This document shows, piece by piece, positions 3,623 to 64,000 of a stretch of 64,000 nt of DNA. The DNA lies in the NCBI GenBank assembly GCA_037128595.1, contig JBAXWB010000011.1, forward strand, positions 17,714 to 81,713, read 5' to 3'. Origin of the DNA: a bacterium. GTDB taxonomy: Bacteria; Verrucomicrobiota; Kiritimatiellia; CAIKKV01; CAITUY01. Below the pieces are notes generated by a model, which saw only the letters and a program-made list of their open reading frames with translations, searched no databases and was not told the origin of the DNA. The position numbers and the translations under genes were made by a program. Each line of letters starts with the position of its first letter. The first letter of the stretch is position 1.

Positions 3623-6600
3623 GTGTATTTGAAATCCATTCATATGGTCGGGTTCAAGAGTTTCGCGAATCCCACAACCTTAAATTTTGAACCGGGTATG
3701 ACCGCGATTGTCGGTCCCAATGGCTGCGGCAAAAGCAATGTGTCGGACGCCGTGCGCTGGGTACTGGGTGAGACGAGCGCCAAGGCCCTCCGCGGATCCA
3801 AGATGGAAGATGTCATTTTTAACGGAACCGATACCCGCAAACCCGTGGGCATGGCCGAAGTCAGCATCACCTTTACAGATTGCGAACAAACTCTCGGCAC
3901 CGACTACCATGAAGTCACGGTCACCCGCCGGGTCTTCCGCTCAGGCGAAGGCCAGTATTTCATGAATAAAACCGCCTGCCGACTCAAGGACATCCAGCGG
4001 TTGTTCATGGATACCGGGATCGGCACCTCCTCCTACTCGTTGATGGAACAGGGCCGCATCGACCAGGTCTTGAGCTCCCGTCCCGAGGATCGCCGTGAAA
4101 TTTTCGAGGAAGCCAGCGGAATCACCCGCTTCAAGGCGGACAAAAAGGAAGCCCTGCGGAAACTGGAACAAACCGAGGCCAACCTGCTGCGTCTGGATGA
4201 CGTGGTCCGCGAAGTGAAGCGGCAGATCGGATCGCTTCAACGCCAGGCCGGCAAAGCCCGCCGCTATAAGGAACTGCGCGATCAGCTCCGGATGTTCGAT
4301 GTCTACTGGACGGCACGGAAACTGGAGAAAATGGATGGCGACCTTCAGATGCTCGACACCACCATCACCGAATTGGGTCAGAAAATCCAGGAATTGCACG
4401 AGACCCTGCAGCAGGGCGAAGCACGAGGCACCGAGTGGCGGGACGCCATCATGGAAATCGAGCAGCTGATTGGCGAGACCACCGAGGAACGCGCCACGGC
4501 CCAGACCCGGCTTGAACACAATAATGACCTGATCCGGATCAATCGTGACCGTATTGAGGAGCTCCGCAACCTGGCGGAACGCGACCGGCGCGACAGCGTG
4601 CTCGCCGCCTCCCAGGCCGAACAGCAACGGCTGACCCTGACCGCTCTCAAGGAAAACCTGCTGACCACCATTCAGGAACGGAACGACTCCGAGATCGAAT
4701 GGAACAAGAAGAACGCGGATCTGGCCAGTCATGAAGTTCAGGTCGAAGCCGCCCGCAAGGAAATCCAGACGTTACGCGCCAGCGCCATGGCACTGGACCA
4801 TACCCTCTCGCAACTCCAGAACCAGTTGACCCAGCTCGAAGCCAAGCAGCAGGCGACCATTGTCCAACGCGAGCGCATGGCCGCGGAACATGCCCAGATC
4901 GAACGGGGTGCCGCCGAAACGGAATCCCAGCTCGGCCAGATCGCGGAGCACCTTGGCTCCCTGCAGCAGGAACTTGAAACACGGGAAGGCCGCCTCGAAT
5001 CGCTTCAATCGCTCCGGCACGAAAAAACCACGGAAATCGAGGCCTTACGCAAGGAATGCAGCGAGATTCAGGGGCAATTGGCCGTTAAGAAAGCCCAGAT
5101 CGAGATTCTGGAGGCGGACGAACAGTCGGCCAAGGATTTCCCCGAGGGCGCCCGCCTTGTCATGGACGCCACCAATCCCCTCGGCGTCAACGCCAAGGCG
5201 GTGCTGGGTGCACTGGCCAGCCACATTCAAACGGAACCCGAATACCGGACGGCCCTGGAGTCTGTCCTGCGGGCCTGGCTGGATGCCGTGGTCATTGCCG
5301 ATGCCCCGGATGCCCTAGCGATCCTCAAGGAATTGCAAACGCGCAAGGCCGGGGCGATCCGCCTGCTGGCGGCCAACGCCGCCGCCGCCACTCCCGCCGT
5401 GATTCCCGCCCCACCGGGAGCGCGCCGGTTATTTGACGTCATTACCTGTACCCCGTTCGCCAAACCGGCGGTGGCCCGCTTTCTCGCCAATATCTTTGTA
5501 GTGGACTCAACCGAAGCCATTCCCTCTGAAATTCCAGAAGGCAGCGCGGTCGTCACCCTCGGCGGAGTCGTCGCCCGGGCAGATGGCGCGTTCGAATACT
5601 GGGCCACCGATGCGCGCGCCAGCAACCCCCTGACCCGGCGCCACCAATTAACCGACCTGCATCAGGGGTTGGAAGGCCTTGATGAAGGCCTCGCCCGGCG
5701 CAGCCACGCGGTGGCCTCGCTGGCCGCCGAACTGACCGATCTGAACCGCAATATTGAGGAAGCCACCCAGCAGCTCACCGCCCAACGTCGTGCCGTGGCC
5801 CTGAAGGAAGGTGAATTCCAGATTGTCTCCAATGACGCCCGCCAATCGAAGCAAAAGCTGGAAGTCATGGCCTTTGAACTGGATAAACTCCGCCAGCAGT
5901 CCGGAAATGACACCGAGCGCCAGGGACTCAGCGGCCAGATCGCGGAAGGCCGCGCCAAACAGGCTGACATGCTCCGGCGTCTGGAGGAACTCACTCATTT
6001 GCTCCAGGACCTCGAGGGCCAGCGCAGTGCCTTGCAGGCGGCGGCCACCGAAGCCCGCCTCCGGTTCTCCGAAGCCCGCCAGAAAGCCGAGCACATGGAC
6101 TCACAGCTGGAGCCCATCCAACACCGGCTAGCCGAACTGGATTCCGTTATCAAGTCGCGCTCCGAGGGGCTCGTCCAGTACGAAAAGACCATTGAACAGC
6201 TCACCCATGCGACCGCCGAGGCGGAAAGCCAGCTCTCCACCCTGCAGGCCAACGCCTCCGCCCTGGCAGAGAAACTGGAATTGATCAAGCGCCAGCGCAC
6301 CGACAAGGTCAAGGAACTCTCCGTTCTGGAAGCCGAACTCATGGCCAAGCGGGAGCTCATGGACAAAATCCGGGATCAACGCTCCAAGCTGGAGGTCAAT
6401 AACGCCGAGCACAAGATGCGCCGGCAGAACCTGATCGATCGCGTCACCTCGGAGTGGACGCTGACCCTGGAAGATGTGATGCGTGCGCCCGAACCCCGAC
6501 CGGAGGGAGAAGACGCCCCACCGGTCACGGAAACACCGGCTTACGAGCAGGTCATCGCGGAGGTCCGCACCAAAATCGAGGCGATGGGCCCCGTCAATCT

Positions 6601-8074: not shown

Positions 8075-8116
8075 AGTCCGGCCACCGGAGTCAGGAGACA
8101 GGATTCAGGAAACACC

Positions 8117-9625
8117 ATGAGTTTTAGAACACCTTTGATTCATCACACGATCCGGGCCCTGGTGCTGAGCATCATGCTGGGGCTCCCTTTGACCAGCCTG
8201 GCAGGGATTGACCGTCAGCGCCAGTCCGTCGCCAAGATCTACGTCACTGTGCAGCAGGAGGATTTCCGCCAGCCCTGGCAGTCCAGCCCGCCGATGAGCG
8301 GCAATGGCTCGGGCTTCATTATCAAGGGAAAGCGCCTGATGACCAACGCCCACGTCGTCTCTGATGCCCGCTTCATTGAAGTCCAGCGCGAAGGCGACAC
8401 CCGTAAATTTCCGGCGCACGTCCGGTTCATTGCCCACGACTGCGACATTGCCGTACTGGAAGTCAATGATGAAGCGTTCTTCGAAGGAACCAAACCCCTG
8501 ACGTTCGGCACCACCCTCCCCAGCCTGAATGACGCCGTGATCGTGCTGGGCTACCCCATGGGGGGCGGCCGCCTGTCTCTCACCAAAGGCGTGGTTTCCC
8601 GCATTGACTACAACCTCTATGCGCACAGTTCCATCGACTCCCACCTGGTGATGCAGGTGGATGCGGCGATCAATCCCGGCAATAGCGGCGGACCGGTGCT
8701 CTTCGACAACAAAGTCATCGGGATCGCGTTCCAGGGCATCGAGGCCTCGCAAAACATCGGCTATACCATCCCGCTCCCGGTCATCGAGCACTTCCTCAAG
8801 GATATTGACGACGGGACCTACGATGGTTACCCGGAACTGGGCGTGGACCATCTCCGCACCGAAAACCCGGCCTTACGCGTGAACCTCGGGCTCCCTAACG
8901 GGAGCAGCGGGGTGGTCGTCGCCAATGTGGACCCTTATGGGGCGGCGGCGGGACTGCTTAAGCCCCGCGATGTACTGCTGGCCATTGACGGCCACCCCAT
9001 TGCCAATGATGGTTCCGTCCGTCTGGATAACAACACGGTGGAATACACGGAGTTCGTGGAGCGCAAGCAATGCACCGAGAGCATCAATTTCACCATCTGG
9101 CGCGAGGATCAAACGCTCGCGATCGTGGTCCCCTTGAGGCGCAAGCCGGACCCGTTCATCTTCCGCCAAACCTATGACCAGAAGCCGGAGTACTTTATTG
9201 CCGGGGGCCTGATTTTCTCCCCCCTCAGCCGTGGCTATCTGGCCACACTGGGCACCGAACTCAATACCCCGCCGGCCCAGCACCTGCTTTACACCGCCCG
9301 CTACGCCAAACTCGACAACCTGATCAAGGATCGCAGTCAGTTCGTCCTGCTCACCGGACGCCTGCCCCACCCCGTCAACACCTATTGCACCAGTCACTTC
9401 AACCAGATTCTGGCCTCCGTCAATGGCCAGCTGATCCGTTCGATCGGTGACCTGCCTGAAGCCCTGAAAAAACCGGTTCAAGGCTTCCATGTCTTCCGCT
9501 TTGAAGGCCAGGATGACCCCCTGATCATGGATGCAGGGCAGGCCGCCAAAGCTGACTCTGAGATACTGACCCATTATAGCATCCCCTCCCTCTCCCGTAT
9601 TCTCCCAGCCCAGGAGGCCAAATAA
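8117..9625 (+). CDS. secreted trypsin-like serine protease, S1C/HtrA-like (catalytic His-Asp-Ser intact, PDZ domain, roughly 170-aa C-terminal extension)
   Basis: Signal peptide present. Triad motifs are TNAHVV (His), DCDIAVL (Asp) and GNSGGPV (Ser). A PDZ-like segment GSSGVVVANVDPYGAAAGLLKPRDVLLAIDG follows. Confidence 0.8.
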   Translation: MSFRTPLIHHTIRALVLSIMLGLPLTSLAGIDRQRQSVAKIYVTVQQEDFRQPWQSSPPMSGNGSGFIIKGKRLMTNAHVVSDARFIEVQREGDTRKFPAHVRFIAHDCDIAVLEVNDEAFFEGTKPLTFGTTLPSLNDAVIVLGYPMGGGRLSLTKGVVSRIDYNLYAHSSIDSHLVMQVDAAINPGNSGGPVLFDNKVIGIAFQGIEASQNIGYTIPLPVIEHFLKDIDDGTYDGYPELGVDHLRTENPALRVNLGLPNGSSGVVVANVDPYGAAAGLLKPRDVLLAIDGHPIANDGSVRLDNNTVEYTEFVERKQCTESINFTIWREDQTLAIVVPLRRKPDPFIFRQTYDQKPEYFIAGGLIFSPLSRGYLATLGTELNTPPAQHLLYTARYAKLDNLIKDRSQFVLLTGRLPHPVNTYCTSHFNQILASVNGQLIRSIGDLPEALKKPVQGFHVFRFEGQDDPLIMDAGQAAKADSEILTHYSIPSLSRILPAQEAK

Positions 9626-16435: not shown

Positions 16436-18363
16436 TGCGGACTAATGGCCGACGCTTCCGAATTGGTGATATTCAAACCGGTTTTCTGACTCCAGCGGTC
16501 AGTGGCCGCTTTGGCTGTCACTTCCGTTGACATCACATGCGGCGTCACAAAGATGATCAGATTTGTCCGTTGTTTGGCTTCCACCGTGCGGCGGAACAAA
16601 AACCCGATAAGCGGAATGGACCCCAACACCGGAATTTTACGGATGACATTCGACCGGTCTTCCCGGATCAGGCCGCTGATGACAATCGTGCGGCCATCCG
16701 GAACGGTCACCGTCGTTGACACTTCGCGCCTGGCAATCGTCGGGGCAAACTGAGTATCTGATGGCCCCGAATCAATGATGGCCTCTATACTGGGATTCAA
16801 GGTCATGCAGACCTCATTGGAGGGATTGATCCGCGGCGTCAGCTTGAGTTTGATGCCGACATCCAACCGGTCAATATTCTGAATGACATCACGTGACGTT
16901 CCGGAGCCGCCCTGGATGGTAGACTTGAGAATCGGGATGTTATTCACCACACTGACGCTGGCCTCCTTGTTATTCTGCGCCACCAGCGGGACACTCGAGA
17001 GGATTTTGACCTTCCCATTGGACTGCAAGGCATTGATGTTAATCATCCCCGGGAAGCTGGATACCATGTTGCCGCTACTGTCCAAGCGGGTCCCGCGCAC
17101 CACCCCCATCATGATGCCCTTGGGAAAGATCCCATTCTGGACCACGTCGTTAATACTCTTCGAATTGTCACTCAACCGGGTACTCCCCTGAATCACGGAA
17201 TCCCCCACCTTGGACGGCGCGTTCAGCGCTGTCAATTCAACGCCCACATCCAGCGAATCATCGGCGCTGACCTCGGCAATCACGACTTCAATCAGGACCT
17301 GATCCTGGAGCTGATCCAACTCGGACACGAGTGACTTCAACAACTCGAAATCCATCGGGGACGCATCCACCAACAAGGCGTTATTTGCCGTACTGGCCTC
17401 GACCGACAGTTTTTTCCGTTCACCGGCTTTGGGCGGGTCTTTGCCCATCGACCGCTCCAGCAAGGCATTCAGGCTTTTGGCCGCCTCATCGGCACTGATA
17501 TATTTCAGAAAGATGGCATGCAAATTACCGCGCCCCGTCGCAGTCTCCACATCCACGAGCGCCAGCAGTTTTTTAACCTCGGCAATTTCAGAAGCCGGCC
17601 CGATCAGGATCAGACTATTGGACTGCGGCGTGGAGACCATGACCAGTTCATTCCCGCGCGGGGCAGCCACGCCATCCCGGATCATCGGGCGCGGCCCAAT
17701 GGCTTGATTGTATTGCCGGACAAATTCCGCCGCATCCGCATTCTTGAGGAACACCACCTCACTCGTCGTTCCAACACCCGCCTTGTCAATCTCGGCAATG
17801 ATTTGTTCAAAACGCCGCACGTTATTCGCCGTATCGGTCAGGATAATGTGATTCGAGGACTCCAGAATGGCCGCCGTAGCGCCCTTTTCCCGCCCCGTCA
17901 GGGTATCAAGAATCTTCCTCAGATCCGCCACATTCGTATGCTTGAGGCGAATCACACGGGTAATGACCCCGTTCCCCTCGATGCGGCCATCCTCCCCGAT
18001 CACCGGAGCTGAGACAAGGGTCCGGGTCGGCATCACCACAATGCGGTTCAAATTGGGTTCCTCAATGACCGCACAGCCAACCGATTCCAGGATGCGCGTA
18101 AACAAGGGATAGGCCTCAGCCACGGGCACGCGGGGTGCCACCACGGTGATCTGGCCCTTCACGGCCTCATCCACAATGAACCGGCGCCCGGTCAGCTCCC
18201 CGATGATCTTCACAAAGGAGCGGATATCCACCTGACTGAAGGAGAAATTAACCGACGACTGCGGAGTGGTGATGGCTACCGGGCGTTCCTCGGCAGCAGG
18301 AAGGAAACTCCCTGACAGTGTCAGGGAGAGTCCCAGGCAAATCATTGGCAGTGATCGGTGCAT
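16432..18363 (-). CDS. gspD: type II secretion system secretin GspD
   Basis: N0/N1 domains (FSFSQVDIRSFVKIIGELTGRRFIV) and a C-terminal secretin domain. The start is placed at MHRSLPMICLGL... (signal peptide) with a GGGAGGA SD. The ORF-track start 18393 is 10 codons longer. Confidence 0.85.
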   Translation of the reverse strand: MHRSLPMICLGLSLTLSGSFLPAAEERPVAITTPQSSVNFSFSQVDIRSFVKIIGELTGRRFIVDEAVKGQITVVAPRVPVAEAYPLFTRILESVGCAVIEEPNLNRIVVMPTRTLVSAPVIGEDGRIEGNGVITRVIRLKHTNVADLRKILDTLTGREKGATAAILESSNHIILTDTANNVRRFEQIIAEIDKAGVGTTSEVVFLKNADAAEFVRQYNQAIGPRPMIRDGVAAPRGNELVMVSTPQSNSLILIGPASEIAEVKKLLALVDVETATGRGNLHAIFLKYISADEAAKSLNALLERSMGKDPPKAGERKKLSVEASTANNALLVDASPMDFELLKSLVSELDQLQDQVLIEVVIAEVSADDSLDVGVELTALNAPSKVGDSVIQGSTRLSDNSKSINDVVQNGIFPKGIMMGVVRGTRLDSSGNMVSSFPGMININALQSNGKVKILSSVPLVAQNNKEASVSVVNNIPILKSTIQGGSGTSRDVIQNIDRLDVGIKLKLTPRINPSNEVCMTLNPSIEAIIDSGPSDTQFAPTIARREVSTTVTVPDGRTIVISGLIREDRSNVIRKIPVLGSIPLIGFLFRRTVEAKQRTNLIIFVTPHVMSTEVTAKAATDRWSQKTGLNITNSEASAISPQ

Positions 18364-38733: not shown

Positions 38734-38751
38734 GTTTCTATGTATAGAAAC
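38734..38751. promoter_or_regulatory. 18-bp perfect palindrome GTTTCTATgtATAGAAAC lying between -4 and -21 of the trpE start codon (candidate operator / RBS-sequestering hairpin)
   Basis: Seen directly: 8-bp arms with a 2-nt centre, covering the position where the trpE SD should be. Confidence 0.5.
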
Positions 38752-38824
38752 AACCGCGAGGAAAGTCAAAGAAAAAATCAGCACCCCCTGCCCACCCTGG
38801 CCTCCATAGCCTTGGCGACGGAGG

Positions 38825-38860
38825 CTGCTCACTGCCTACTGCCCACTGCCCACTGGCTTC
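38825..38860 (-). repeat. tandem heptad repeat array (CAGTGGG-CAGTGGG-CAGTAGG-CAGTGAG-CAG) in the trp leader; same family as 62186-62267
   Basis: Direct reading of the minus strand. It shares the flanking GAAGC (plus cactggcttc) with the second locus. Confidence 0.7.
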
Positions 38861-40064: not shown

Positions 40065-40265
40065 TCGGAGCAATGTACCGAAGATGAACCGGAGGGGAAA
40101 GCGGAAAGAAAGCGAAGTTATTGGTAATGGGTAATGGGTGATTTGCAACAGGGAGATGAGTTTTATCAAGAACTGAAAAGGCCCACGTACGTATGCGCGC
40201 GGGGTTTCCGGTGTCGGCAGTGGTGGCGCGGGCTCGATGACGGCTGAGGGGGCGGTTCAGTAAAT

Positions 40266-56165: not shown

Positions 56166-57086
56166 ATGAAGGCTCAAATCAAGGCGCTGGCCACGGATCT
56201 CGGATACCATGCCTGCGGAATCACCGGGATGCAGCCGTTTGATGACTATCAGACGGCGCTCACCCAGCTATCCGCCCGCTTCCCGGATGCCGCCGCCCTC
56301 TATCAGGGAATGGAGCGCCGCATCAATCCCTCCACCTTTGCGCCCTGGGCAAAATCGATTGTCGTCGCCATCCGGCGCTACGGGAAATATGATGTCCCCA
56401 ATGCCATCACCCGCCATATCGGCCGCAACTATCTCTGTGACCGCCGCATCAAGGCCTGTCCGGACACTACCCTGCCCAAACGCATGAAGCAGGGACTCAG
56501 CGCACTGGGCCATCGCGTCAAAGTCGGAGGGATTCCCTGCCGCGAAGCCGCGGTGCGGGCAGGGCTGGTTCAGATTGGCCGTAACGGGTTCGCCTATGCC
56601 GAAGGGTGCGGCTCATGGTTGAATATCGAGGCGTGGTTGATAGATGCCGAAATTGAGCCCGACGCCCCTTCCGCACTGGCGGCCCCCTGCCCGCCCGGTT
56701 GCCGGGCCTGTCTGGACGCCTGCCGGACCTGCGCCCTGAGTGAACCCTATGTGGTGGACATGAAGCGCTGCATCGCTTACCTGACCTATGAGGAAGACCA
56801 GCCGATCCCCGATGAATTGTGGAATAAAATGGGGCCCTGGGTCTATGGCTGTGATGACTGCCAGAATGCCTGCCCGATGAACCGGGGGAAATGGGAGCGC
56901 CTTGAGCCGGCCTCCTGGATTGAGTCCGTCGCCAACCAGCTGACGCCGGAATCGCTCGCCAGCATGGATGCGGAGACCTACCAGAAGCTCGTCTATCCGC
57001 TCTTCTGGTACATTTCCGAAACTGACCTGGAACGATGGCACCGCAATGCCCGCCGGGCGTTACAGGCCGTTCGCGCGCCGGGCTGA
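56166..57086 (+). CDS. queG: epoxyqueuosine reductase QueG-like (4Fe-4S, DUF1730-type)
   Basis: CPPGCRACLDACRTCAL and CDDCQNACPMN ferredoxin-type clusters. N-terminal domain with IKALATDLGYHACGIT. Start uncertain (ATG 56145, 56160 or 56166) and no clear SD. Confidence 0.6.
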   Translation: MKAQIKALATDLGYHACGITGMQPFDDYQTALTQLSARFPDAAALYQGMERRINPSTFAPWAKSIVVAIRRYGKYDVPNAITRHIGRNYLCDRRIKACPDTTLPKRMKQGLSALGHRVKVGGIPCREAAVRAGLVQIGRNGFAYAEGCGSWLNIEAWLIDAEIEPDAPSALAAPCPPGCRACLDACRTCALSEPYVVDMKRCIAYLTYEEDQPIPDELWNKMGPWVYGCDDCQNACPMNRGKWERLEPASWIESVANQLTPESLASMDAETYQKLVYPLFWYISETDLERWHRNARRALQAVRAPG

Positions 57087-57944
57087 TTCGACGGTGTTAT
57101 AGAGCAGCATGGTAATCGTCATGGGCCCCACCCCGCCGGGCACCGGCGTGATCATGCTCGCCTTGGCCATGCAGCCTTCAAAGTCGGCATCGCCAACCAA
57201 CCGGAAGCCCGCCTTCTTGGTGGCGTCTTCAATGCGGTTCACCCCGACATCAATCACCACGGCGCCCTCACGGATCATATCCGCAGTCACCGTATTCGGA
57301 CGCCCCGCCGCCGCAATGACGATATCCGCCTGCCGCGTATAGTGCGCGATGTTCCTGGTCTTGGTATGACAGACCGTCACCGTCGCATTGCCCAACGGCC
57401 CCTTGGCCATCAGCATATTGGCCAACGGCTTGCCAACGATATTGCTGCGCCCGACAATGACCGCATGCGCGCCCTCGACCTTTACGCCGCTCCGGAGCAG
57501 CATCTGTAACACCCCATGCGGGGTGCAGGGCAAAAAGGCTTTTTCGCCCACGACCATCCGCCCGACATTGGTGGGGTGGAACCCGTCCACATCCTTATCC
57601 GGATCGATGGTGACCAGGACTTCACTCTCATTTAACTGCTTGGGCAGCGGCAACTGCACCAGGATGCCATTGATTTTCGGGTCGGCATTCATCTTCCGGA
57701 TCAAGGCCAGCAGTTCGGCCTGGGTGGCATCAGCCGGGAGCCGATTGTCATCCGAGAAGATCCCGATCTCATGGCAGGCTTTTTCCTTGGCTGTCACATA
57801 GGACCGCGAGGCAGGATCATCGCCGACCAGAATCACGCCCAACCCGGGCACAATCCCTTTTTCCTTCAGCTGCCTGATCTCAACCGCCAGTTCTTCACGA
57901 ATCTGCCGGGCAATCTCTTTTCCATCGATAATTTTTGCGGTCAT
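57060..57944 (-). CDS. folD: bifunctional methylenetetrahydrofolate dehydrogenase / methenyl-THF cyclohydrolase
   Basis: MTAKIIDGKEIARQIREEL and VGDDPASRSYV with a GRSNIVGKP NAD(P) motif. Its 3' end overlaps queG convergently by 27 nt. Confidence 0.93.
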   Translation of the reverse strand: MTAKIIDGKEIARQIREELAVEIRQLKEKGIVPGLGVILVGDDPASRSYVTAKEKACHEIGIFSDDNRLPADATQAELLALIRKMNADPKINGILVQLPLPKQLNESEVLVTIDPDKDVDGFHPTNVGRMVVGEKAFLPCTPHGVLQMLLRSGVKVEGAHAVIVGRSNIVGKPLANMLMAKGPLGNATVTVCHTKTRNIAHYTRQADIVIAAAGRPNTVTADMIREGAVVIDVGVNRIEDATKKAGFRLVGDADFEGCMAKASMITPVPGGVGPMTITMLLYNTVESARRANGL

Positions 57945-57957
57945 GGTTTCCTTGGAC

Positions 57958-59730
57958 TTAAAACAGGCCCTTTACCCGGCCGGACTCCACATCGATATCA
58001 ATATTATTGAAGGCTGGCTCCGATGCCGTTCCCGGCATCAGCTTGATCTCGCCCGCCACCGGCACCACAAAGCCGGCGCCCCGATAGACCAGCATGTCGC
58101 GGATCGGCAGGGTCCAGCCCTTGGGCCGTCCCTTGAGGTTGGGATCATGCGAGAGGCTGAGATGCGTCTTCACCATGCAGGTGCCCATCGCCGCCGTGGC
58201 GGGATCTGCCTCGAACTTCAACACCTTCTCCATCGCCACATCGCTGAACGTCACGCCATCAGCCCCGTAGATTTCCTTGGCGATCAACTCAATCCGCTGA
58301 CGGTGCGGGGTGGTGAGATCGTACAGGAATTTGAAGTCATTCTTTTCATTGGCCGCCGTCACCACCACTTCCGCCAGCTCGCGGGCCCCTTCGCCCCCCT
58401 TGAGCCAATGCTGGGAAAGCGCCGCATAGGCCCCATGCTGCTGAGCGATCTTCTTCACTAACGCCACTTCGGCCGGCGTGTCCGTGTAAAAGCCATTGAT
58501 GCAGACCACCGGACGGACCCCGGACTTTTTAATGATTTCAATGTGGGCAATGAGGTTCTCGCACCCCTTCTCAAGCAGCCCGAGATTCTCCCGGGTATAG
58601 GCCTCATCGAGCTTGGCGCCGGGTTTGACGGCGGGTCCCCCGCCATGCATCTTGAGCGCGCGGATCGTCGCCACCAACACCACCGCACTCGGCTTCAGGC
58701 CGGAGAACCGGCATTTCAGGTTCCAGAATTTCTCATACCCGATGTCCGCCGCAAACCCGCTTTCGGTGACATGATAGTCCGCCAGCCGGGTCCCGATTTC
58801 ATCGGCGATAATGGAGCTCTGCCCGATGGCGATATTCGCGAATGGACCGGCATGCACAAAGATCGGCTGCCCCTCAACGGTTTGCACCAGCGTGGGATGA
58901 ATGGCCTCGACCATCCAGGCCGCCATCGCCCCGTCCACCTTGAGGTCAGCGGTGGTGATTTCATTGCCATCCTTATCGCAGGCCAGGACCATCTTCGCCA
59001 GGCGCTGCCTCAAATCCTTGAGATCCTTGGAGACCGCCAGAATGGCCATGACTTCGCTGCCCACGGAAATCTGGAAGCCGGACTCCATCTCAAAGCCGTC
59101 CATCTTACTGCCCCGGCCGATGGTGATGTTGCGCAGACTCTGGGCACAGAAGTCCATACACCACTTCACGCTCACCCGCGCGGGGTCCACGTTCAGGCGG
59201 CGGATGCCGGTCCTGGCCAGACGGGCATCATCATAGTTCTGCTCGTGCTGCATGCGGGAGGTCAAGGCCACCAGCGCCAGATTGTGCGCGTTGGTGATGG
59301 AGTCGATATCCCCCGTCATGCGAATCGAAAAAGGAGCCAATGGAATACACTGAGCCAGGCCACCGCCCGCCGCAGAGCCCTTGATATTGAACGTCGGGCC
59401 CCCGCTGGGCTGGCGGATGGCGCCCGTCACACTCTTGCCCAGCACCGACAACCCCTCAATCAGCCCGATGGTGGTGGTGGTCTTGCCCTCGCCGAGCGGC
59501 GTGGGGGTAATGGCCGTGACATCGATATACTTGCCCACGGGCCTGGAGCCGATGCGCTCCATCACCGCGCGCTGGTCCACTTTGGCCAGTTGCCGGCCCA
59601 TCATGATCACTTCGCTTTCGTGAAGTCCCAACTCCGAGGCCAACTGCATGACCGGCTTCATGGTCTGCTCGGCGGCTTCGGCAATCTGCCAGTCCTTCAT
59701 CTTTGTCGGATCCAAAATCGGTCGTGTCAT
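57958..59730 (-). CDS. fhs: formate--tetrahydrofolate ligase
   Basis: [18 protein letters not shown]-loop and full-length FTHFS. Start 59730 has an AAAGGA SD with a 6-nt spacer. Confidence 0.92.
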
Positions 59731-59749
59731 AAATAGTCCTTTATTCCGC

Positions 59750-60769
59750 TCACTCCACTAATTTGCCTTCGCGATGCGCCATGATGAATTCCACCCCGAA
59801 CATATCCTCGCCCGTCAACAGCGCCCGTGCCAACGTGAACGACTCGGAGGTGGTATCCACGGCCGACAGGATTTTTGCATTCATTTGCAGGGGGTCCAAA
59901 ATCCCGCTGTCACCACCCGCCTCCACCACCATCCAGGTGAACACCTGATTGATGAGCTTACGGGCCGGCATCCCGAACGACACATTGCTCAAGCCGCCGG
60001 AGATGTGAATCTCAGGGCCATAGGCCTTCCGGATGGCGGCCACGGATTCCAGAAAGGACTGGGCGTTGTTCGAGTCCGTCGCCACCGGAAAGACCAGGGG
60101 ATCCACGTACACATCCGAACCGCGAATGCCCACGGCATCGAGGAGCGGCATGAGGCGGCTGATGTTCGCCAGCCTCTGCTCCGTGTTGCCGGGCAGGTCC
60201 TTCTCTCCTGCCGCCGAGGCAATGACCACCGCCTTGAATTCGGCCGCAACCGGAATGGACTCCTGCCGCTCGAGCGACACCGAGTTCACCATGGGCCGGC
60301 CCCGCCGGGAATCACAGGCCTGCAGACCCGCACGCAGAATCGCGGGATTGGAGGAATCAATACTCAGTGGAATCGACGCCGTGGCCTGCACCACCTCCGC
60401 CACCCACTGGATCGCACGGCACCGCTCGGCAATATCAGTGCTGAACTCGTCCACATTCACATCCAGGAATGAGGCATCGGCCCGCTCCTGCCGCATGGCC
60501 AGGTAACGGAGATAATCCACGGCCGCCGCCTTGCCGGCCGCATCCCCATACAACCCCTGCCAGACCGCCACGGCACAATGCTTGATTTTGCCGGCCTCCC
60601 AATCCGCCGTCTTTAAAAAATGCTCAGGAATGGGCAACGCGCGCGCGTCCGCCTTGCCCCCGTAGACCACCGCGAACCGGCCGTCGTCCAACTGCTTTAC
60701 AAAATTACCACCCACTTTATAAATACGGGTACAATGGATATTCTCACCCACCACAATTAATGTTTTCAA
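59750..60769 (-). CDS. pterin-binding (dihydropteroate-synthase-like TIM barrel) methyltetrahydrofolate methyltransferase, AcsE/MtrH/MetH-domain-like
   Basis: Pterin-binding barrel pattern and C1 context. TTG start preceded by GGAGGGG. Confidence 0.55.
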
Positions 60770-60797
60770 ATGCCCCTCCTGACTCGTTCTTCAAAAC

Positions 60798-60811
60798 GTG
60801 CCTAATATGGC
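60798..60811. promoter_or_regulatory. inverted repeat TGCC-TAATAT-GGCA abutting the AraC-family regulator ATG in a 42-nt divergent intergenic region (candidate autoregulatory operator)
   Basis: Seen in sequence. It occupies the place of an SD for the regulator gene. Confidence 0.3.
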
Positions 60812-62203
60812 ATGCACCTCCCCGATATTCTTGGACAAACAGGCGTGATTATTGCACAATCTGGCATTGTGAAATTAAGACCCGAGACCTCTGAGCTCAC
60901 CCATCTGCTGCAGGAAATCGAAGAGATTGCCGGACAAGGGGCCGTTTATCACGCCCTTTACGAGCGGCAGGTGCTTCTGAACAAAAAAGTCTGCACCTTC
61001 TGCCGACAGGCACTGGCCCATCCGGTCGCCGCCTCGTTATGCCGGGTGGCCTGCTGTAATGGGACCTTGCAATCAATGAGCGCGGGGGAGCCGTATTATT
61101 TCCGATGCTGGGCCAATCTGCTGGTGATCGCCATTCCGGTGGCGCCCCATGGCAAGTGCATCGGCGGCATTACGCTGGGCGGCTTCTGTGTGAGTGGCGA
61201 AAAACCGGACATCCGGGAGGCCGTTACCCAGTTGGCCCGGTCATGGCCTGACGCCCATCCCGCCACCTTCCTGAAGCAATTGGAGTCGGTGAAACTCATC
61301 ACTCCCGCCGCCTTGAGAGGCCTGGGGGCCCTGGCGATGGAGACCACCTTTTCCAATGGCATTAATTCGAGTGAGTTTTTCCGCAGGCAAAATGGGAAAT
61401 ATCTCCAGCAACGCCGGATCGCCGAGGCGGCCGCCGAGATCCGGGAGAACCCTGAGGCCACGCCGGACATCCCGGGCAATACCTATCAGCTCATTACATT
61501 TCTGAATAAGGGCAATAAGCCTGAGGCCCACACCTTCATTTCGCAATATCTCGCAAAACTCCTGCTGGCGAGTAATTGGGACCCGCTAAAATTGAAGGCC
61601 CATCTTCGCGTCCTGCTGGCCGTCATGACGAGTCAGGATATTCTGCGGGGCACCCCCTGGGCGGTCGCCACCAGCCGGGAACTGCGCAACATGGTCCGGC
61701 TGGAGCAGGCCCGCACGACGGAGGAAAGCTGTTACGAGGTGACGGAATGGATCCAGCAGTTTTTTGTCGGACAGAACACCCTGACTCACGACGGGCGCAG
61801 CCTGGCCGAGCGGGTCACCCACTGGCTTCAATCCCATTATCCGGAGAGCGTCACGCTTGACCTGGCATCAAAGGCCGTGGGGGTGAGTTCCTCAACGCTC
61901 GTGCACCGCTTACGGCAGGAAGTGGGAAAAACCTTCAAGGAAATCCTCACCGAGATCCGTATTTCAGAGGCCAAGAAATTCCTCGCCACCACCTCGCTGG
62001 ACATCAGCGGTATCGGGGACGCCTGCGGTTTCTTCGACCAGAGCCATTTTACGCGGGAATTCAAGAAAGCCATCAATCTCACCCCGGGCGCATTCCGGAA
62101 ACTGCTCCGCGTGCCCGACGAAGCCCTGAACCGGCCCGGCAGCGGAAATCTCGATGAAACCGCGCCTTTGAGAAAACGGAAGACAGTTAGCAGTAAGCAG
62201 TAG
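60812..62203 (+). CDS. AraC-family transcriptional regulator with an N-terminal Cys-rich sensory (PocR-like) domain
   Basis: C-terminal dual HTH_AraC (LASKAVGVSSSTLVHRLRQ ... ISGIGDACGFFDQSHFTREFKK). The last five codons (VSSKQ) are encoded by the heptad repeat. Confidence 0.8.
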   Translation: MHLPDILGQTGVIIAQSGIVKLRPETSELTHLLQEIEEIAGQGAVYHALYERQVLLNKKVCTFCRQALAHPVAASLCRVACCNGTLQSMSAGEPYYFRCWANLLVIAIPVAPHGKCIGGITLGGFCVSGEKPDIREAVTQLARSWPDAHPATFLKQLESVKLITPAALRGLGALAMETTFSNGINSSEFFRRQNGKYLQQRRIAEAAAEIRENPEATPDIPGNTYQLITFLNKGNKPEAHTFISQYLAKLLLASNWDPLKLKAHLRVLLAVMTSQDILRGTPWAVATSRELRNMVRLEQARTTEESCYEVTEWIQQFFVGQNTLTHDGRSLAERVTHWLQSHYPESVTLDLASKAVGVSSSTLVHRLRQEVGKTFKEILTEIRISEAKKFLATTSLDISGIGDACGFFDQSHFTREFKKAINLTPGAFRKLLRVPDEALNRPGSGNLDETAPLRKRKTVSSKQ

Positions 62204-62267
62204 GCAGATACCAAATTCTACCCACTGTCTACTGCCCACTGCTTACTGCCCACTGCTCACTGGCTTC
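62186..62267. repeat. heptad-repeat element: 2.4 CAGTRRG units on the plus strand (62190-62207) facing 6 units on the minus strand (62221-62262); forms a 17/18-bp hairpin between convergent genes
   Basis: Direct reading. Plus 62190-62207 pairs with 62232-62249. It shares cactggcttc with the 38825-38860 locus. Confidence 0.7.
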
Positions 62268-62862
62268 AATTCTTCCCGTGCGCCTGCTCATAACGCTTGA
62301 TCTCATCCCGGAGTTTGGCGGCCTCTTCGTAGTCTTCTTTGGCGATCGCCTTTTCCTGTTTGGCCTTCAACTGCTCGAGCGGAGAGCCCTTCGATTTGGC
62401 GGATTTGGCGGGTTCGCCGGCCTGCGCCTTGCCGGACGCTTCCGCCTTCGCGTCGGCCTCCTTCTCTTCCGCAATCACGACCCCCGCCTTATTCATCACC
62501 TGCGCGGTCACATAGAGCGGGGAGGAGCACCGCAACCCAAGGGCGATCGCATCACTCGGCCGGGCGTCAATCTCGGTTTCAACCCCGTCATGTTCCAACA
62601 CCAGTACCGCAAAAAAAGTATTATCCACCACATCCTTGATCACCACCCGCATTAAGCGACACTCCATGCAATCCAGTACGTTTTTGAACAGATCATGGGT
62701 CAGGGGACGGGGAATTTGAACCTTTTCAAGCCACAAGGCAATCGACTGGGCTTCCGCCCCGCCAATGAATATGGGCAGCGTCCGGGGATCGGGATCCCCC
62801 TTGAGCAGAACCACAAATCCCAGATTGGACAACGATAACCCGGCTACTTTGACATGAATCAT
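62266..62862 (-). CDS. bifunctional-nuclease (BFN/DUF151) domain protein with a C-terminal UVR (UvrB/UvrC-type) motif
   Basis: DUF151 core (VVLLKGD...PIFIGGAEAQSIA) and a C-terminal AKEDYEEAAKLRDEI UVR-like helix. Confidence 0.65.
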   Translation of the reverse strand: MIHVKVAGLSLSNLGFVVLLKGDPDPRTLPIFIGGAEAQSIALWLEKVQIPRPLTHDLFKNVLDCMECRLMRVVIKDVVDNTFFAVLVLEHDGVETEIDARPSDAIALGLRCSSPLYVTAQVMNKAGVVIAEEKEADAKAEASGKAQAGEPAKSAKSKGSPLEQLKAKQEKAIAKEDYEEAAKLRDEIKRYEQAHGKN

Positions 62863-62919
62863 AAATTACCTCGTATGGCTGCACTCTATCACCCTTTCGC
62901 GTGCCGTGAAAAGGTTCTA

Positions 62920-62948
62920 TTGAAGAGATCCACCGTAACGACTATATA
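62920..62948 (+). promoter_or_regulatory. sigma-70-type promoter candidate (TTGAAG-N17-TATATA) giving a near-leaderless GNAT transcript
   Basis: Hexamers with a 17-nt spacer. The -10 ends 10 nt before the ATG at 62959. Confidence 0.3.
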
Positions 62949-62958
62949 TAAGCCCCTG

Positions 62959-63477
62959 ATGAAACTCATTTCATGTGACGCACGCCACCTGCCGGCCATC
63001 ATGGCTATTTTTAATGAGGCCATTCTCCATTCCACCGCCCTCTGGGACGACACTACCAGATCCCTTGAAACAGTGTCAGCCTGGTTTGAGGCCAAAGCCA
63101 AGGACGGCTTTCCCGTCGTTGTAATTGAAAATGACGCCCGTGAGCTCATGGGCTTTGCCACCTACGGAGTCTTTCGCAACAAGCCGGGATACAAATATAC
63201 CGTTGAGCATTCCATCTATGTTGACGCCCGGTTCCGGGGGAAGGGCATTGGCACCCACCTGATGCAGGAGTTGATCCGCCTCGCCCAAGCCCAGCAGTTC
63301 CACACCCTGGTCGGGGCCATCGATACGACCAACGAAGCCAGCATGGCCCTCCATCGCCGCCTCGGGTTTGAGTACTGCGGCACCATCAAACAGGCGGGCT
63401 TCAAGTTCGGCCGCTGGCTTGACATGGCCTTCTATCAGCTCCTCCTCCCCACCCCCACCGCGCCGGTCAGCAGATAA
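62959..63477 (+). CDS. GNAT family N-acetyltransferase (phosphinothricin/YncA-like)
   Basis: MGFATYGVFRNKPGYKYTVEHSIYVDARFRGKGIGTHLM (acetyl-CoA-binding motif A). Start at MKLISCDARHL. Confidence 0.8.
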   Translation: MKLISCDARHLPAIMAIFNEAILHSTALWDDTTRSLETVSAWFEAKAKDGFPVVVIENDARELMGFATYGVFRNKPGYKYTVEHSIYVDARFRGKGIGTHLMQELIRLAQAQQFHTLVGAIDTTNEASMALHRRLGFEYCGTIKQAGFKFGRWLDMAFYQLLLPTPTAPVSR

Positions 63478-63528
63478 TTTGTAATATCTCATCTTTTCCG
63501 CGTAATACGGACTAGAGGGTAAGATCCA

Positions 63529-64000
63529 GTGAACGAAACCGAACTCGACCAACTCATAGAACGGATCCAAAACGGGGATCGGGATGCCTTTGGCGACGTG
63601 GTGTTCGCCATCCGCAAGGAGTTACGGATCTTCCTCTCCGCCCACGCCTGTTCCATTGATATGGTCGAAGAAGTGCTCCAGCACACGCTCGTGGTCTGTT
63701 ACGAAAACATCGCGAAATATGAACGACGCGGCACCTTCCTCTCCTGGACCAAGGGCATTGCCCGGAATCTGATGCTCAAAGAGTTGAAGGCACGCTCCCG
63801 ATACGTTGCCCCCGGCGAAGATGAACTCGACCGGATCGTACTGGATGCCGCCGTGCATTCCGTGCAGGCCCAAGACCGCGAAGAGGAGTATGTGGAACGC
63901 CTCCGCCATTGTCTCACCAAACTGCCCGAAGACTCCCGCAAGCTGGTCGAACAACGTTATTTCAACCGCTTGTCCATCCGGGAACTGGCCGCCCTCACCC
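63529..64000 (+). CDS. RNA polymerase sigma-70 family ECF sigma factor (N-terminal 157 aa; runs off the window)
   Basis: GTG start after AGAGGG. Region 2 (GDRDAFGDVV...FLSWTKGIARNL) and region 4 (LPEDSRKLVEQRYFNRLSIRELA). Confidence 0.8.
   Translation, partial: MNETELDQLIERIQNGDRDAFGDVVFAIRKELRIFLSAHACSIDMVEEVLQHTLVVCYENIAKYERRGTFLSWTKGIARNLMLKELKARSRYVAPGEDELDRIVLDAAVHSVQAQDREEEYVERLRHCLTKLPEDSRKLVEQRYFNRLSIRELAALT

Follow-up and report, generated by a model that had tools for sequence, protein, structure and literature searches.

Knowledge of tandem 7-nt repeats in bacteria goes back to 1990, and the units of the cyanobacterial short tandemly repeated repetitive (STRR) sequences described in that year by Mazel et al. 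are reportedly CCCCAGT (STRR1), TTGGTCA (STRR2) and CAACAGT (STRR3). The arrays described here lie in a stretch of 64,000 nucleotides, called the window in what follows, which covers positions 17,714 to 81,713 of contig JBAXWB010000011.1 (assembly GCA_037128595.1) from a bacterium of the class Kiritimatiellia (Verrucomicrobiota). At one site, locus 2, two arrays of the heptanucleotide CAGTRRG face each other and form a hairpin between the convergent genes for a PocR-sensor/AraC-type regulator and a bifunctional nuclease (BFN); at a second site, locus 1, a single array of the same family follows a lipoprotein-like gene. The element at locus 2 is probably an STRR-like pair of heptanucleotide repeats, with the hairpin as a dispensable, if perhaps helpful, by-product.

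Among long simple sequence repeats (SSRs), heptamers are the commonest class in many bacteria, and slippage of the polymerase has been put forward as their cause (Mrazek, 2007, as cited in PMC4679880). The units GGGAATC in Xanthomonas and GGGGA(C/T)T in Nostoc are placed either with the coding strand no more than 50 bp past a stop codon, overlap with the stop included, or on the non-coding strand before start codons, and are under-represented between divergent genes. Their length and sequence vary at the same intergenic site between related genomes, and inverted copies could form stem-loops; no function was identified (Rehm et al., 2015; PMC4692102). Direct repeats of TAACTGA are found in marine Beggiatoaceae, cyanobacteria and Bacteroidetes, a patchy distribution over phyla, and their stop codons, present in one orientation only, limit overlap with gene ends (MacGregor, 2015; PMC4679880). 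A search of the literature for recent studies of the mechanism behind heptamer repeats gave only the papers of 2015 and one Nostoc preprint, in which regulation is only speculated. Heptamer strings used as queries returned nothing beyond primer and sequence noise, and neither the CAGTRRG unit nor its spread over many phyla was found in the literature searched.

Sense-oriented arrays at gene ends

All three arrays in the window (Table 1) begin at a gene's stop codon or 3–7 nt beyond it, in sense orientation for that gene, and all three are preceded by GAAG(A/C). When two convergent genes each carry a sense array, the arrays must face each other, and a hairpin is automatic. The initial annotation, made from the sequence alone, had described CAGTAAG-CAGTAGG-CAG on the plus strand facing six minus-strand units, and had seen that the repeat itself encodes the last residues of the regulator. 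This anatomy is confirmed, and the left array has in addition a CAGTTAG unit at its 5′ end. Sense for the regulator gene, the array provides the hairpin's 5′ arm when plus-strand RNA folds; GAAGA stands immediately upstream, at 62179–62183. Positions 62186–62203 read GTT AGC AGT AAG CAG TAG, that is, VSSKQ and the stop codon, so that the last six codons of the regulator (...TVSSKQ) and its TAG are supplied by the array. On the minus strand the right array reads CAGTGAG CAGTGGG CAGTAAG CAGTGGG CAGTAGA CAGTGGG and is sense for the BFN gene, whose stop codon is part of GAAGC, the 'head' that precedes arrays of this lineage. The locus-1 array starts 7 nt after the TGA (38865–38863) of a lipoprotein-like gene of 139–157 aa, in the same sense orientation, with GGGAAGC in between (TGA-GGGAAGC-CAGTGGG).

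Table 1. Features of the two heptad loci; positions are those of the window, and the arrays are given as read on the strand stated in the notes column or, if none is stated, on the strand of the feature.
Feature	Positions	Strand	Notes
PocR-sensor/AraC-type helix-turn-helix (HTH) regulator gene	60812..62203	+	From the list of open reading frames (ORFs); 463 aa as longest ORF; Pfam PocR, HTH_18, HTH_AraC
Left heptad array, CAGTTAG CAGTAAG CAGTAGG CAG	62184..62207	+	3.4 units, period 7 (Tandem Repeats Finder)
Regulator stop codon, TAG	62201..62203	+	Within the third heptad unit
13-nt spacer ATACCAAATTCTA (hairpin loop)	62208..62220		Between left and right arrays
Right heptad array, CCCACTG TCTACTG CCCACTG CTTACTG CCCACTG CTCACTG	62221..62262	-	Plus-strand reading; 6.0 units, period 7 (Tandem Repeats Finder)
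BFN stop/array junction, TGA-AGC, then first CAGTGAG	62263..62268	-	TGA at 62268-62266, 3 nt before the array
Bifunctional-nuclease (BFN) + UVR-motif gene	62266..62862	-	Convergent with the regulator gene
Locus-1 heptad array, CAGTGGG CAGTGGG CAGTAGG CAGTGAG	38828..38855	-	Same repeat family; Tandem Repeats Finder gives 4.4 copies at 38825-38855

The two-unit pattern CAGTRRGCAGTRRG, with at most one mismatch allowed, matches the window 10 times against 0.17 expected, and all matches fall at locus 2 or at locus 1. A regular-expression scan agreed with Tandem Repeats Finder on the arrays. Three arrays at two loci in 64 kb compare with about one array per 210 kb in unrelated metagenome contigs. 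The marks of a heptameric SSR are all found: head-to-tail 7-nt units in runs of at least three to four, several loci above chance, turnover between relatives and a mainly non-coding position near gene ends. As in STRR and heptameric SSRs generally, the 7-nt units are repeated in tandem from a few to tens of times, mostly between genes and at many loci, with a copy number that varies between strains. The tetranucleotide CAGT also occurs in the reported units of STRR1 and STRR3. STRR1, with ACTGGGG as its reported G-rich strand, differs from the unit CAGTRRG, whose purine-rich strand is CAGT-RRG, and the host is not a cyanobacterium. With the repeats of Rehm et al. (2015) all three window arrays share a G-rich strand that is the coding strand and a position no more than 50 bp downstream of a stop codon.

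Three of the four CAGTRRG variants bear a stop codon (CAG-TAA-G, CAG-TAG-G and CAG-TGA-G), and a period of 7 places successive units in different reading frames. On the sense strand no frame stays open through the right array and only one does through the left; on the antisense strand there is no stop in the right and locus-1 arrays and one in the left array. The units of Rehm et al. (2015), in contrast, have no stop codons. TAACTGA repeats are closer in this respect, with stops in one orientation and a rotated reverse complement, CAGTTAT, that has the CAGT core, but in Beggiatoaceae they stand mainly a few nucleotides upstream of start codons, whereas the CAGTRRG arrays stand at stop codons. 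A CRISPR, tRNA-like or protein-coding reading of the arrays has against it the lack of spacers, the 7-nt units and the sense-strand stops in two or three frames.

The repeats of Rehm et al. (2015) form G-quadruplexes and prefer four units. A quadruplex was considered for the present arrays and rejected for want of G-tracts, the criterion being at least four tracts of at least three G with short loops: three GGG tracts stand 11 nt apart in the right array, two occur in the locus-1 array and none in the left. With at most three such tracts in an array, no quadruplex is expected. Two further period-7 repeats, of unrelated units, were detected in the window by Tandem Repeats Finder, GGAGTCA (3.4 copies) at 8087–8114 and GGTAATG (2.4 copies) at 40123–40139.

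The same junctions in relatives

A search for homologs of the regulator found 157. In the 60 that were compared, conservation extends to ...LDETAPLRK (in the orthologs described below, to ...LDETAPLRK(R)K) and is followed by unrelated tails. Orthologs of graded identity were then used to align the junction with the BFN gene, the window serving as reference. Contigs of the same strain (L001–L005) are identical to the window and uninformative (samples with this strain include those behind SRR12676973, ERZ4201038 and ERR12084920), and contigs with an identical BFN protein have an identical spacer. The remaining junctions form a natural allelic series. The window, with three units on the left and six on the right, encodes the tail TVSSKQ before the stop. 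A relative with 96% identity in the regulator (L126) has four units and two, and the tail TVSSRQ. Within the same 90% cluster, P0123 has variant units and the tail PVSSWQ, and in L253 the arrays are gone: the junction reads GGAAGA-AAGTGGGCAG-CCGCC-TCA, a single remnant unit is left, and the ORF of the regulator, now ending in KVGSRLNSSRAPAHSA, extends by 35 nt into BFN antisense sequence. At 83% identity (L128), decayed heptads are accompanied by an unrelated 30-nt module. At 80% (L250) there is no repeat, the two stop codons overlap (CCCTTAATTTTT), and the tail is KGKDP. At 73% (L251) the heptads are replaced by a different, perfect hairpin of 16–18 bp (z about -4), CCGGAATCCAGGATTCG...CGAATCCTGAATTCCGG at 9452–9492, which encodes the tail NPESRIRNSES and is followed on the BFN transcript by AUUUUUCC. 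Spacers related to that of the window (ATACCAAATTCTA) are found in L126 (ATGCTAAATC) and L128 (ATACAAAC). The C-terminus of the nuclease (..HGKN) is conserved whether the repeat is present or absent.

The hairpin can thus be lost in relatives, as in L253 and L250, where the two genes overlap by 35 and 4 nt and neither junction has one. The repeats rewrite the regulator's C-terminus and stop codon, and they decide whether the convergent genes overlap. It had been suggested that insertion of the element remodelled the 3′ end of the gene, a proposal to be checked against orthologs that lack the repeat. The orthologs do not end identically, and their tails track the state of the repeat, which supports remodelling of the regulator's 3′ end by the repeat. 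Insertion is a different matter: alignment with the repeat-free junctions of L250 and L253 shows no target-site duplication, and there is no conserved element body. For annotation, the series is a warning that protein C-termini beside such arrays are unstable and repeat-encoded.

Since unit number and sequence differ between close strains and the regulator tail changes with them, the array might be taken for a contingency repeat that switches or diversifies the regulator by C-terminal frameshifts, in the manner of phase variation. This is scarcely conceivable. The repeat is confined to the extreme 3′ end of the gene, past the conserved HTH domain, and the other two frames stop even earlier in the left array (two of three are closed within three units), so that slippage alters no more than a few residues at the terminus and is unable to turn the protein off. 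Arrays of this kind, moreover, follow the unrelated BFN and lipoprotein-like genes without entering them.

At locus 1 the C-terminus of the lipoprotein-like gene (MKEP) is kept in all relatives. A sense heptad array directly follows the conserved stop codon in orthologs of 88% (L255) and 75% (L256) identity, with different units: CAGTGGG CAGTGGA CAGTGGG in the first, succeeded by an inverted array of other units, and CAGTTGT CAGTTAC ... CAGTTGG in the second. The CAGT core is retained and the other three bases have turned over. L255 folds only weakly (z -1.7) and L256 not at all (z +0.5); what persists at locus 1 is the array after the stop, not a hairpin. The inverted heptads of L255 (1650–1692; TAACTGA TTACTGC TAACTGT AAACCGC AAACTGC TTACTGA) lie on the non-coding strand upstream of a trpE-like start codon and include the exact TAACTGA unit described in Beggiatoaceae.

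Folding of the facing arrays

In the hairpin of locus 2, bases 62190–62207 (GCAGTAAGCAGTAGGCAG) pair with 62232–62249 (CTGCCCACTGCTTACTGC) at 17 of 18 positions, as the initial annotation had stated, and other registers reach 21 of 24. The single A/C mismatch of the 17/18 stem becomes a G-U pair in minus-strand RNA. An inverted-repeat search gave five alternative registers, with arms of up to 29 nt that are 76–88% complementary and loops of 8–38 nt, so that the stem may be called 'slippery'; the best registers have loops of 13–24 nt. The region 62170–62285 (116 nt) was folded and compared with 200 shuffles per strand. Plus-strand RNA folds at -38.8 kcal/mol (z -4.9) and minus-strand RNA at -49.6 kcal/mol (z -4.5), and on neither strand was any of the 200 shuffles as stable.

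Because a strong hairpin is predicted in both transcripts, the role proposed earlier, that of a bidirectional terminator or mRNA stabiliser, is physically plausible, although it appears to be dispensable. As in bidirectional intrinsic terminators, one strong stem-loop is common to two convergent transcripts, with pyrimidine- or U-rich sequence after the stem both ways; unlike them, the structure has a long loop, a slippery register and no canonical U-tract, and is missing in close relatives. Scans by a strict criterion (a GC-rich stem, a loop of 3–8 nt and at least five U in the 8 nt starting 0–2 nt after the stem) were negative at both loci, and a scan of 61000–64000 for the intrinsic-terminator consensus flagged nothing at 62180–62270. 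The earlier remark that there is no U-tract stands in that strict sense, with the qualification that minus-strand RNA has UCUUCCGUUUUCUC, U/C-rich and interrupted, directly after the stem. Rfam 15 gave no match at gathering thresholds anywhere in the window; at the locus itself there were sub-threshold look-alikes of miRNA precursors, which are generic hairpins.

It may be asked whether the hairpin is itself the selected object, a dedicated factor-independent bidirectional terminator or stabilising stem for which heptads are only the building material. The very stable folds on both strands speak for this, as do the U/C-rich runs in both directions (UCUUCCGUUUUCUC and CUUCAAUUCUUCCC) and the stem of about 17–19 bp that the 96% relative keeps with different unit numbers. 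The unrelated perfect hairpin with AUUUUUCC at the L251 junction even suggests a recurrent need for structure at this place. On the other side are the terminator consensus, from which the locus departs (no U-tract within 0–2 nt, a loop of 13–24 nt), the overlapping genes of L253 and L250 with no hairpin of any kind, and the persistence of the locus-1 array in relatives where the hairpin is weak or missing. The arms, too, are not matched unit for unit, and there is no sign of compensatory maintenance. In a scan of one genome per species, considered further below, 82 of the 101 arrays among the matches listed stand alone. Selection of the hairpin as such is therefore regarded as unlikely, and a terminator or stabiliser role as the reason for the element's existence is weakened: the hairpin is automatic, close relatives do without it, and the locus-1 arrays persist with a weak one or none.

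Arrays across phyla and the origin of the pair

The scan of one genome per species found (CAGTRRG)x4 at 120 loci or more. The matches listed come from Acidobacteriota, Bacteroidota, Planctomycetota, Verrucomicrobiota, Chloroflexota, Cyanobacteria and Gemmatimonadota, and further from Alphaproteobacteria (including Mesorhizobium isolates), Streptomyces, Sulfurovum, Desulfobacca, a spirochaete and the metagenome-assembled genome of a Firmicute; all counts in this section are counts among these matches. Carriers available in culture include Mesorhizobium loti DSM 2626 (L083), Hymenobacter arizonensis (L042), Algoriphagus kandeliae and Algivirga pacifica. Arrays run from 4 to 25 units and are mostly intergenic (112 of 126), with 10 inside antisense ORFs. 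An inverted partner lies within 150 nt of 19 of 101 arrays, and in all 19 the two point toward each other ('-> <-'), never apart ('<- ->', 0). Other arrays in the CAGTRRG loci also favour the heptad: 42 have period 7, against at most 7 for each of the periods 5, 6, 8 and 9. The GAAG head, in contrast, precedes only 20 of 114 arrays across phyla, and position matrices of the flanks are flat save for purine richness; a GAAG(A/C)CAGT head is thus specific to the lineage of the window.

Several contigs of draft and metagenome-assembled genomes end inside a CAGTRRG array (L019, L035, L058, L076, L085, L098 and L104, with up to at least 13 units visible), which implies that long arrays break short-read assemblies and that true copy numbers are underestimated. 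Some genomes carry many heptad arrays with varied triplets on the CAGT core, as seen in L047 (5108–5300) and at several sites of L117; among them are CAGTTTG x16 facing CAGTGGG, and CAGTTAT, CAGTGAA and CAGTAAA. Neighbouring arrays there drift to the one-base variants CATTGGG, CAATAAG and CAGAGGG, which suggests mutation of a unit followed by homogenisation.

The facing arrays might also have arrived together as a small mobile palindrome with heptad-built arms, inserted between the genes and altered in repeat number only secondarily. An imperfect palindrome between convergent genes, foldable in mRNA, recalls repetitive extragenic palindromic (REP) sequences, bacterial interspersed mosaic elements (BIMEs) and MITEs (miniature inverted-repeat transposable elements), for which roles in stabilisation or termination have been proposed. 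About 80 nt present in the window clade are absent from the otherwise alignable junctions of L250 and L253; the termini are inverted (GAAGACAGT...ACTGTCTTC in L126, GAAGACAGT...ACTGGCTTC in the window); the GAAG(A/C)CAGT head recurs at locus 1; related spacers are found in three relatives; and inverted pairs of the same polarity recur in other phyla. Unlike those elements, however, the arms are tandem arrays of variable length, and no element sequence is conserved beyond the units. Spacers and flanks differ between loci 1 and 2, locus 1 of the window consists of one array that lacks a partner arm, and across 114–121 arrays no head or tail is conserved. No target-site duplication is seen, and no transposase or REP-associated tyrosine transposase (RAYT) gene was seen beside the loci, no genome-wide search having been made. 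L253, finally, retains one unit, which suggests the collapse of an array more than a site that was always empty. Insertion of a mobile element is thus considered improbable.

The reading preferred here, an STRR-like repeat pair, would work as follows. One CAGTRRG array is attached to the 3′ end of each of the convergent genes, each in sense orientation for its own gene, and the arrays gain, lose and mutate units quickly, probably by slipped-strand mispairing. The left array has overrun the variable C-terminal tail of the regulator, where it now encodes TVSSKQ and supplies the stop; the collapse in L253 would be a deletion between facing arrays. Convergent transcripts that reach 60–80 nt past their stop codons would fold the hairpin, which as a 3′-end structure could slow 3′–5′ decay and read-through into the opposing gene, perhaps helped by the U/C-rich runs that Lys and Arg codons of the opposite-strand gene place after the stem. 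The hairpin, of 17–24 bp, is then no designed palindrome but a by-product of gene arrangement and the polarity rule, and the rule holds for CAGTRRG in many phyla.

The cross-phylum matches support this account. Where a co-oriented ORF of at least 150 aa lies upstream, its stop codon is within the array or abuts it in 32 of 72 cases; for the antisense side the count is 4 of 60 (Fisher P = 6e-7). Of 24 stops just before a perfect array, 12 keep the phase of the repeat, whereas 1/7 would be expected (P = 4e-5). At distances of 10–100 nt the sense and antisense sides are similar, so that the excess consists specifically of arrays that touch or supply the stop; arrays made of CAGTGGG only, which have no stop codons, number seven, too few to judge stop content against stop-proximal position. 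Several points weigh against the account. The gene calls behind these figures come from a longest-ORF heuristic, not from curated annotation, and the contrast between sense and antisense sides is partly built in, since an ORF can be ended on the sense strand alone and an antisense array is read through. Slippage alone explains neither the placement of arrays exactly at stop codons, nor the recurrence of the CAGT core in many phyla, nor the persistence of arrays at orthologous sites while the other bases change. The GAAG(A/C) head common to the arrays of this lineage hints at something more specific than random slippage. What the hairpin does at the level of RNA is, moreover, something we purely infer.

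These same facts, the anchoring of sense arrays on stop codons, the facing orientation of all pairs and the retention of orthologous arrays with turnover of the variable triplet, would also fit a dedicated function, in which CAGTRRG, and perhaps all CAGT-core heptads, are polar gene-boundary elements shared across phyla and not neutral products of slippage. Possible functions are a directional barrier that tells outgoing G-rich from incoming C-rich transcripts, or a multivalent site for a conserved binding protein. Such a dedicated function is thought quite unlikely.

A reading in which the arrays are boundary cis-elements read by a factor, either as a multivalent site for an RNA- or DNA-binding protein or as a directional insulator, is judged highly improbable. 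In the insulator version outgoing transcripts would carry the purine- and G-rich CAGURRG and incoming ones the C-rich, G-poor CYYACUG, which could load Rho, and the stops in all frames would be selected as well. Cyanobacteria abound in such repeats and are not known to possess Rho, which counts against that version. The strict polarity relative to gene ends would suit a factor-read element, as would the persistence of locus-1 arrays at 75–100% identity with the CAGT core kept, and the occurrence in many phyla. Other G-rich heptamers follow the same rule, on the coding strand after stops and on the non-coding strand before starts (PMC4692102). Yet no candidate factor is known, the C-rich arm at locus 2 would be sequestered in the hairpin, arrays have been lost in close relatives with no obvious consequence, and published work that looked for a function has found none. 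Slippage-driven repeats with an incidental hairpin therefore stay the preferred reading; the polarity rule, if it is confirmed with proper annotation, would constrain models of how such repeats arise or act.

Some neighbouring features may be added. Directly downstream of the locus-1 array, at 38796–38825, lies a palindromic module of 30 nt, CCTGGCCTCCATAGCCTTGGCGACGGAGGC (minus strand GCCTCCGTCGCCAAGGCTATGGAGGCCAGGG), followed by a T-run at 38777–38768; the same module lies in the spacer of the L128 junction (4388–4417). A 21-nt core of the module is present in 120 or more metagenome contigs, with very different flanks and in several sub-families, and the module has no Rfam match at gathering score. 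A link between the heptads and this CCTCC..GGAGG module was rejected, heptads being nearby in 0 of 121 copies; the adjacency is incidental. Farther on, 3 nt upstream of the ATG (38730–38728, minus strand) of an anthranilate synthase (trpE-like) gene, the perfect inverted repeat GTTTCTAT-GT-ATAGAAAC (38734–38751) is conserved in the 88% and 75% relatives (L255, L256) and may be an operator or a translational element.

At locus 2 the surroundings are constant. In the window (57000–62203) and in L001, L128, L250, L251 and L253 the regulator gene is always convergent with the BFN gene and always divergent from a cluster that comprises a pterin-binding methyltransferase-like gene, formate-tetrahydrofolate ligase and FolD. 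This divergent one-carbon cluster is a probable target of the regulator.

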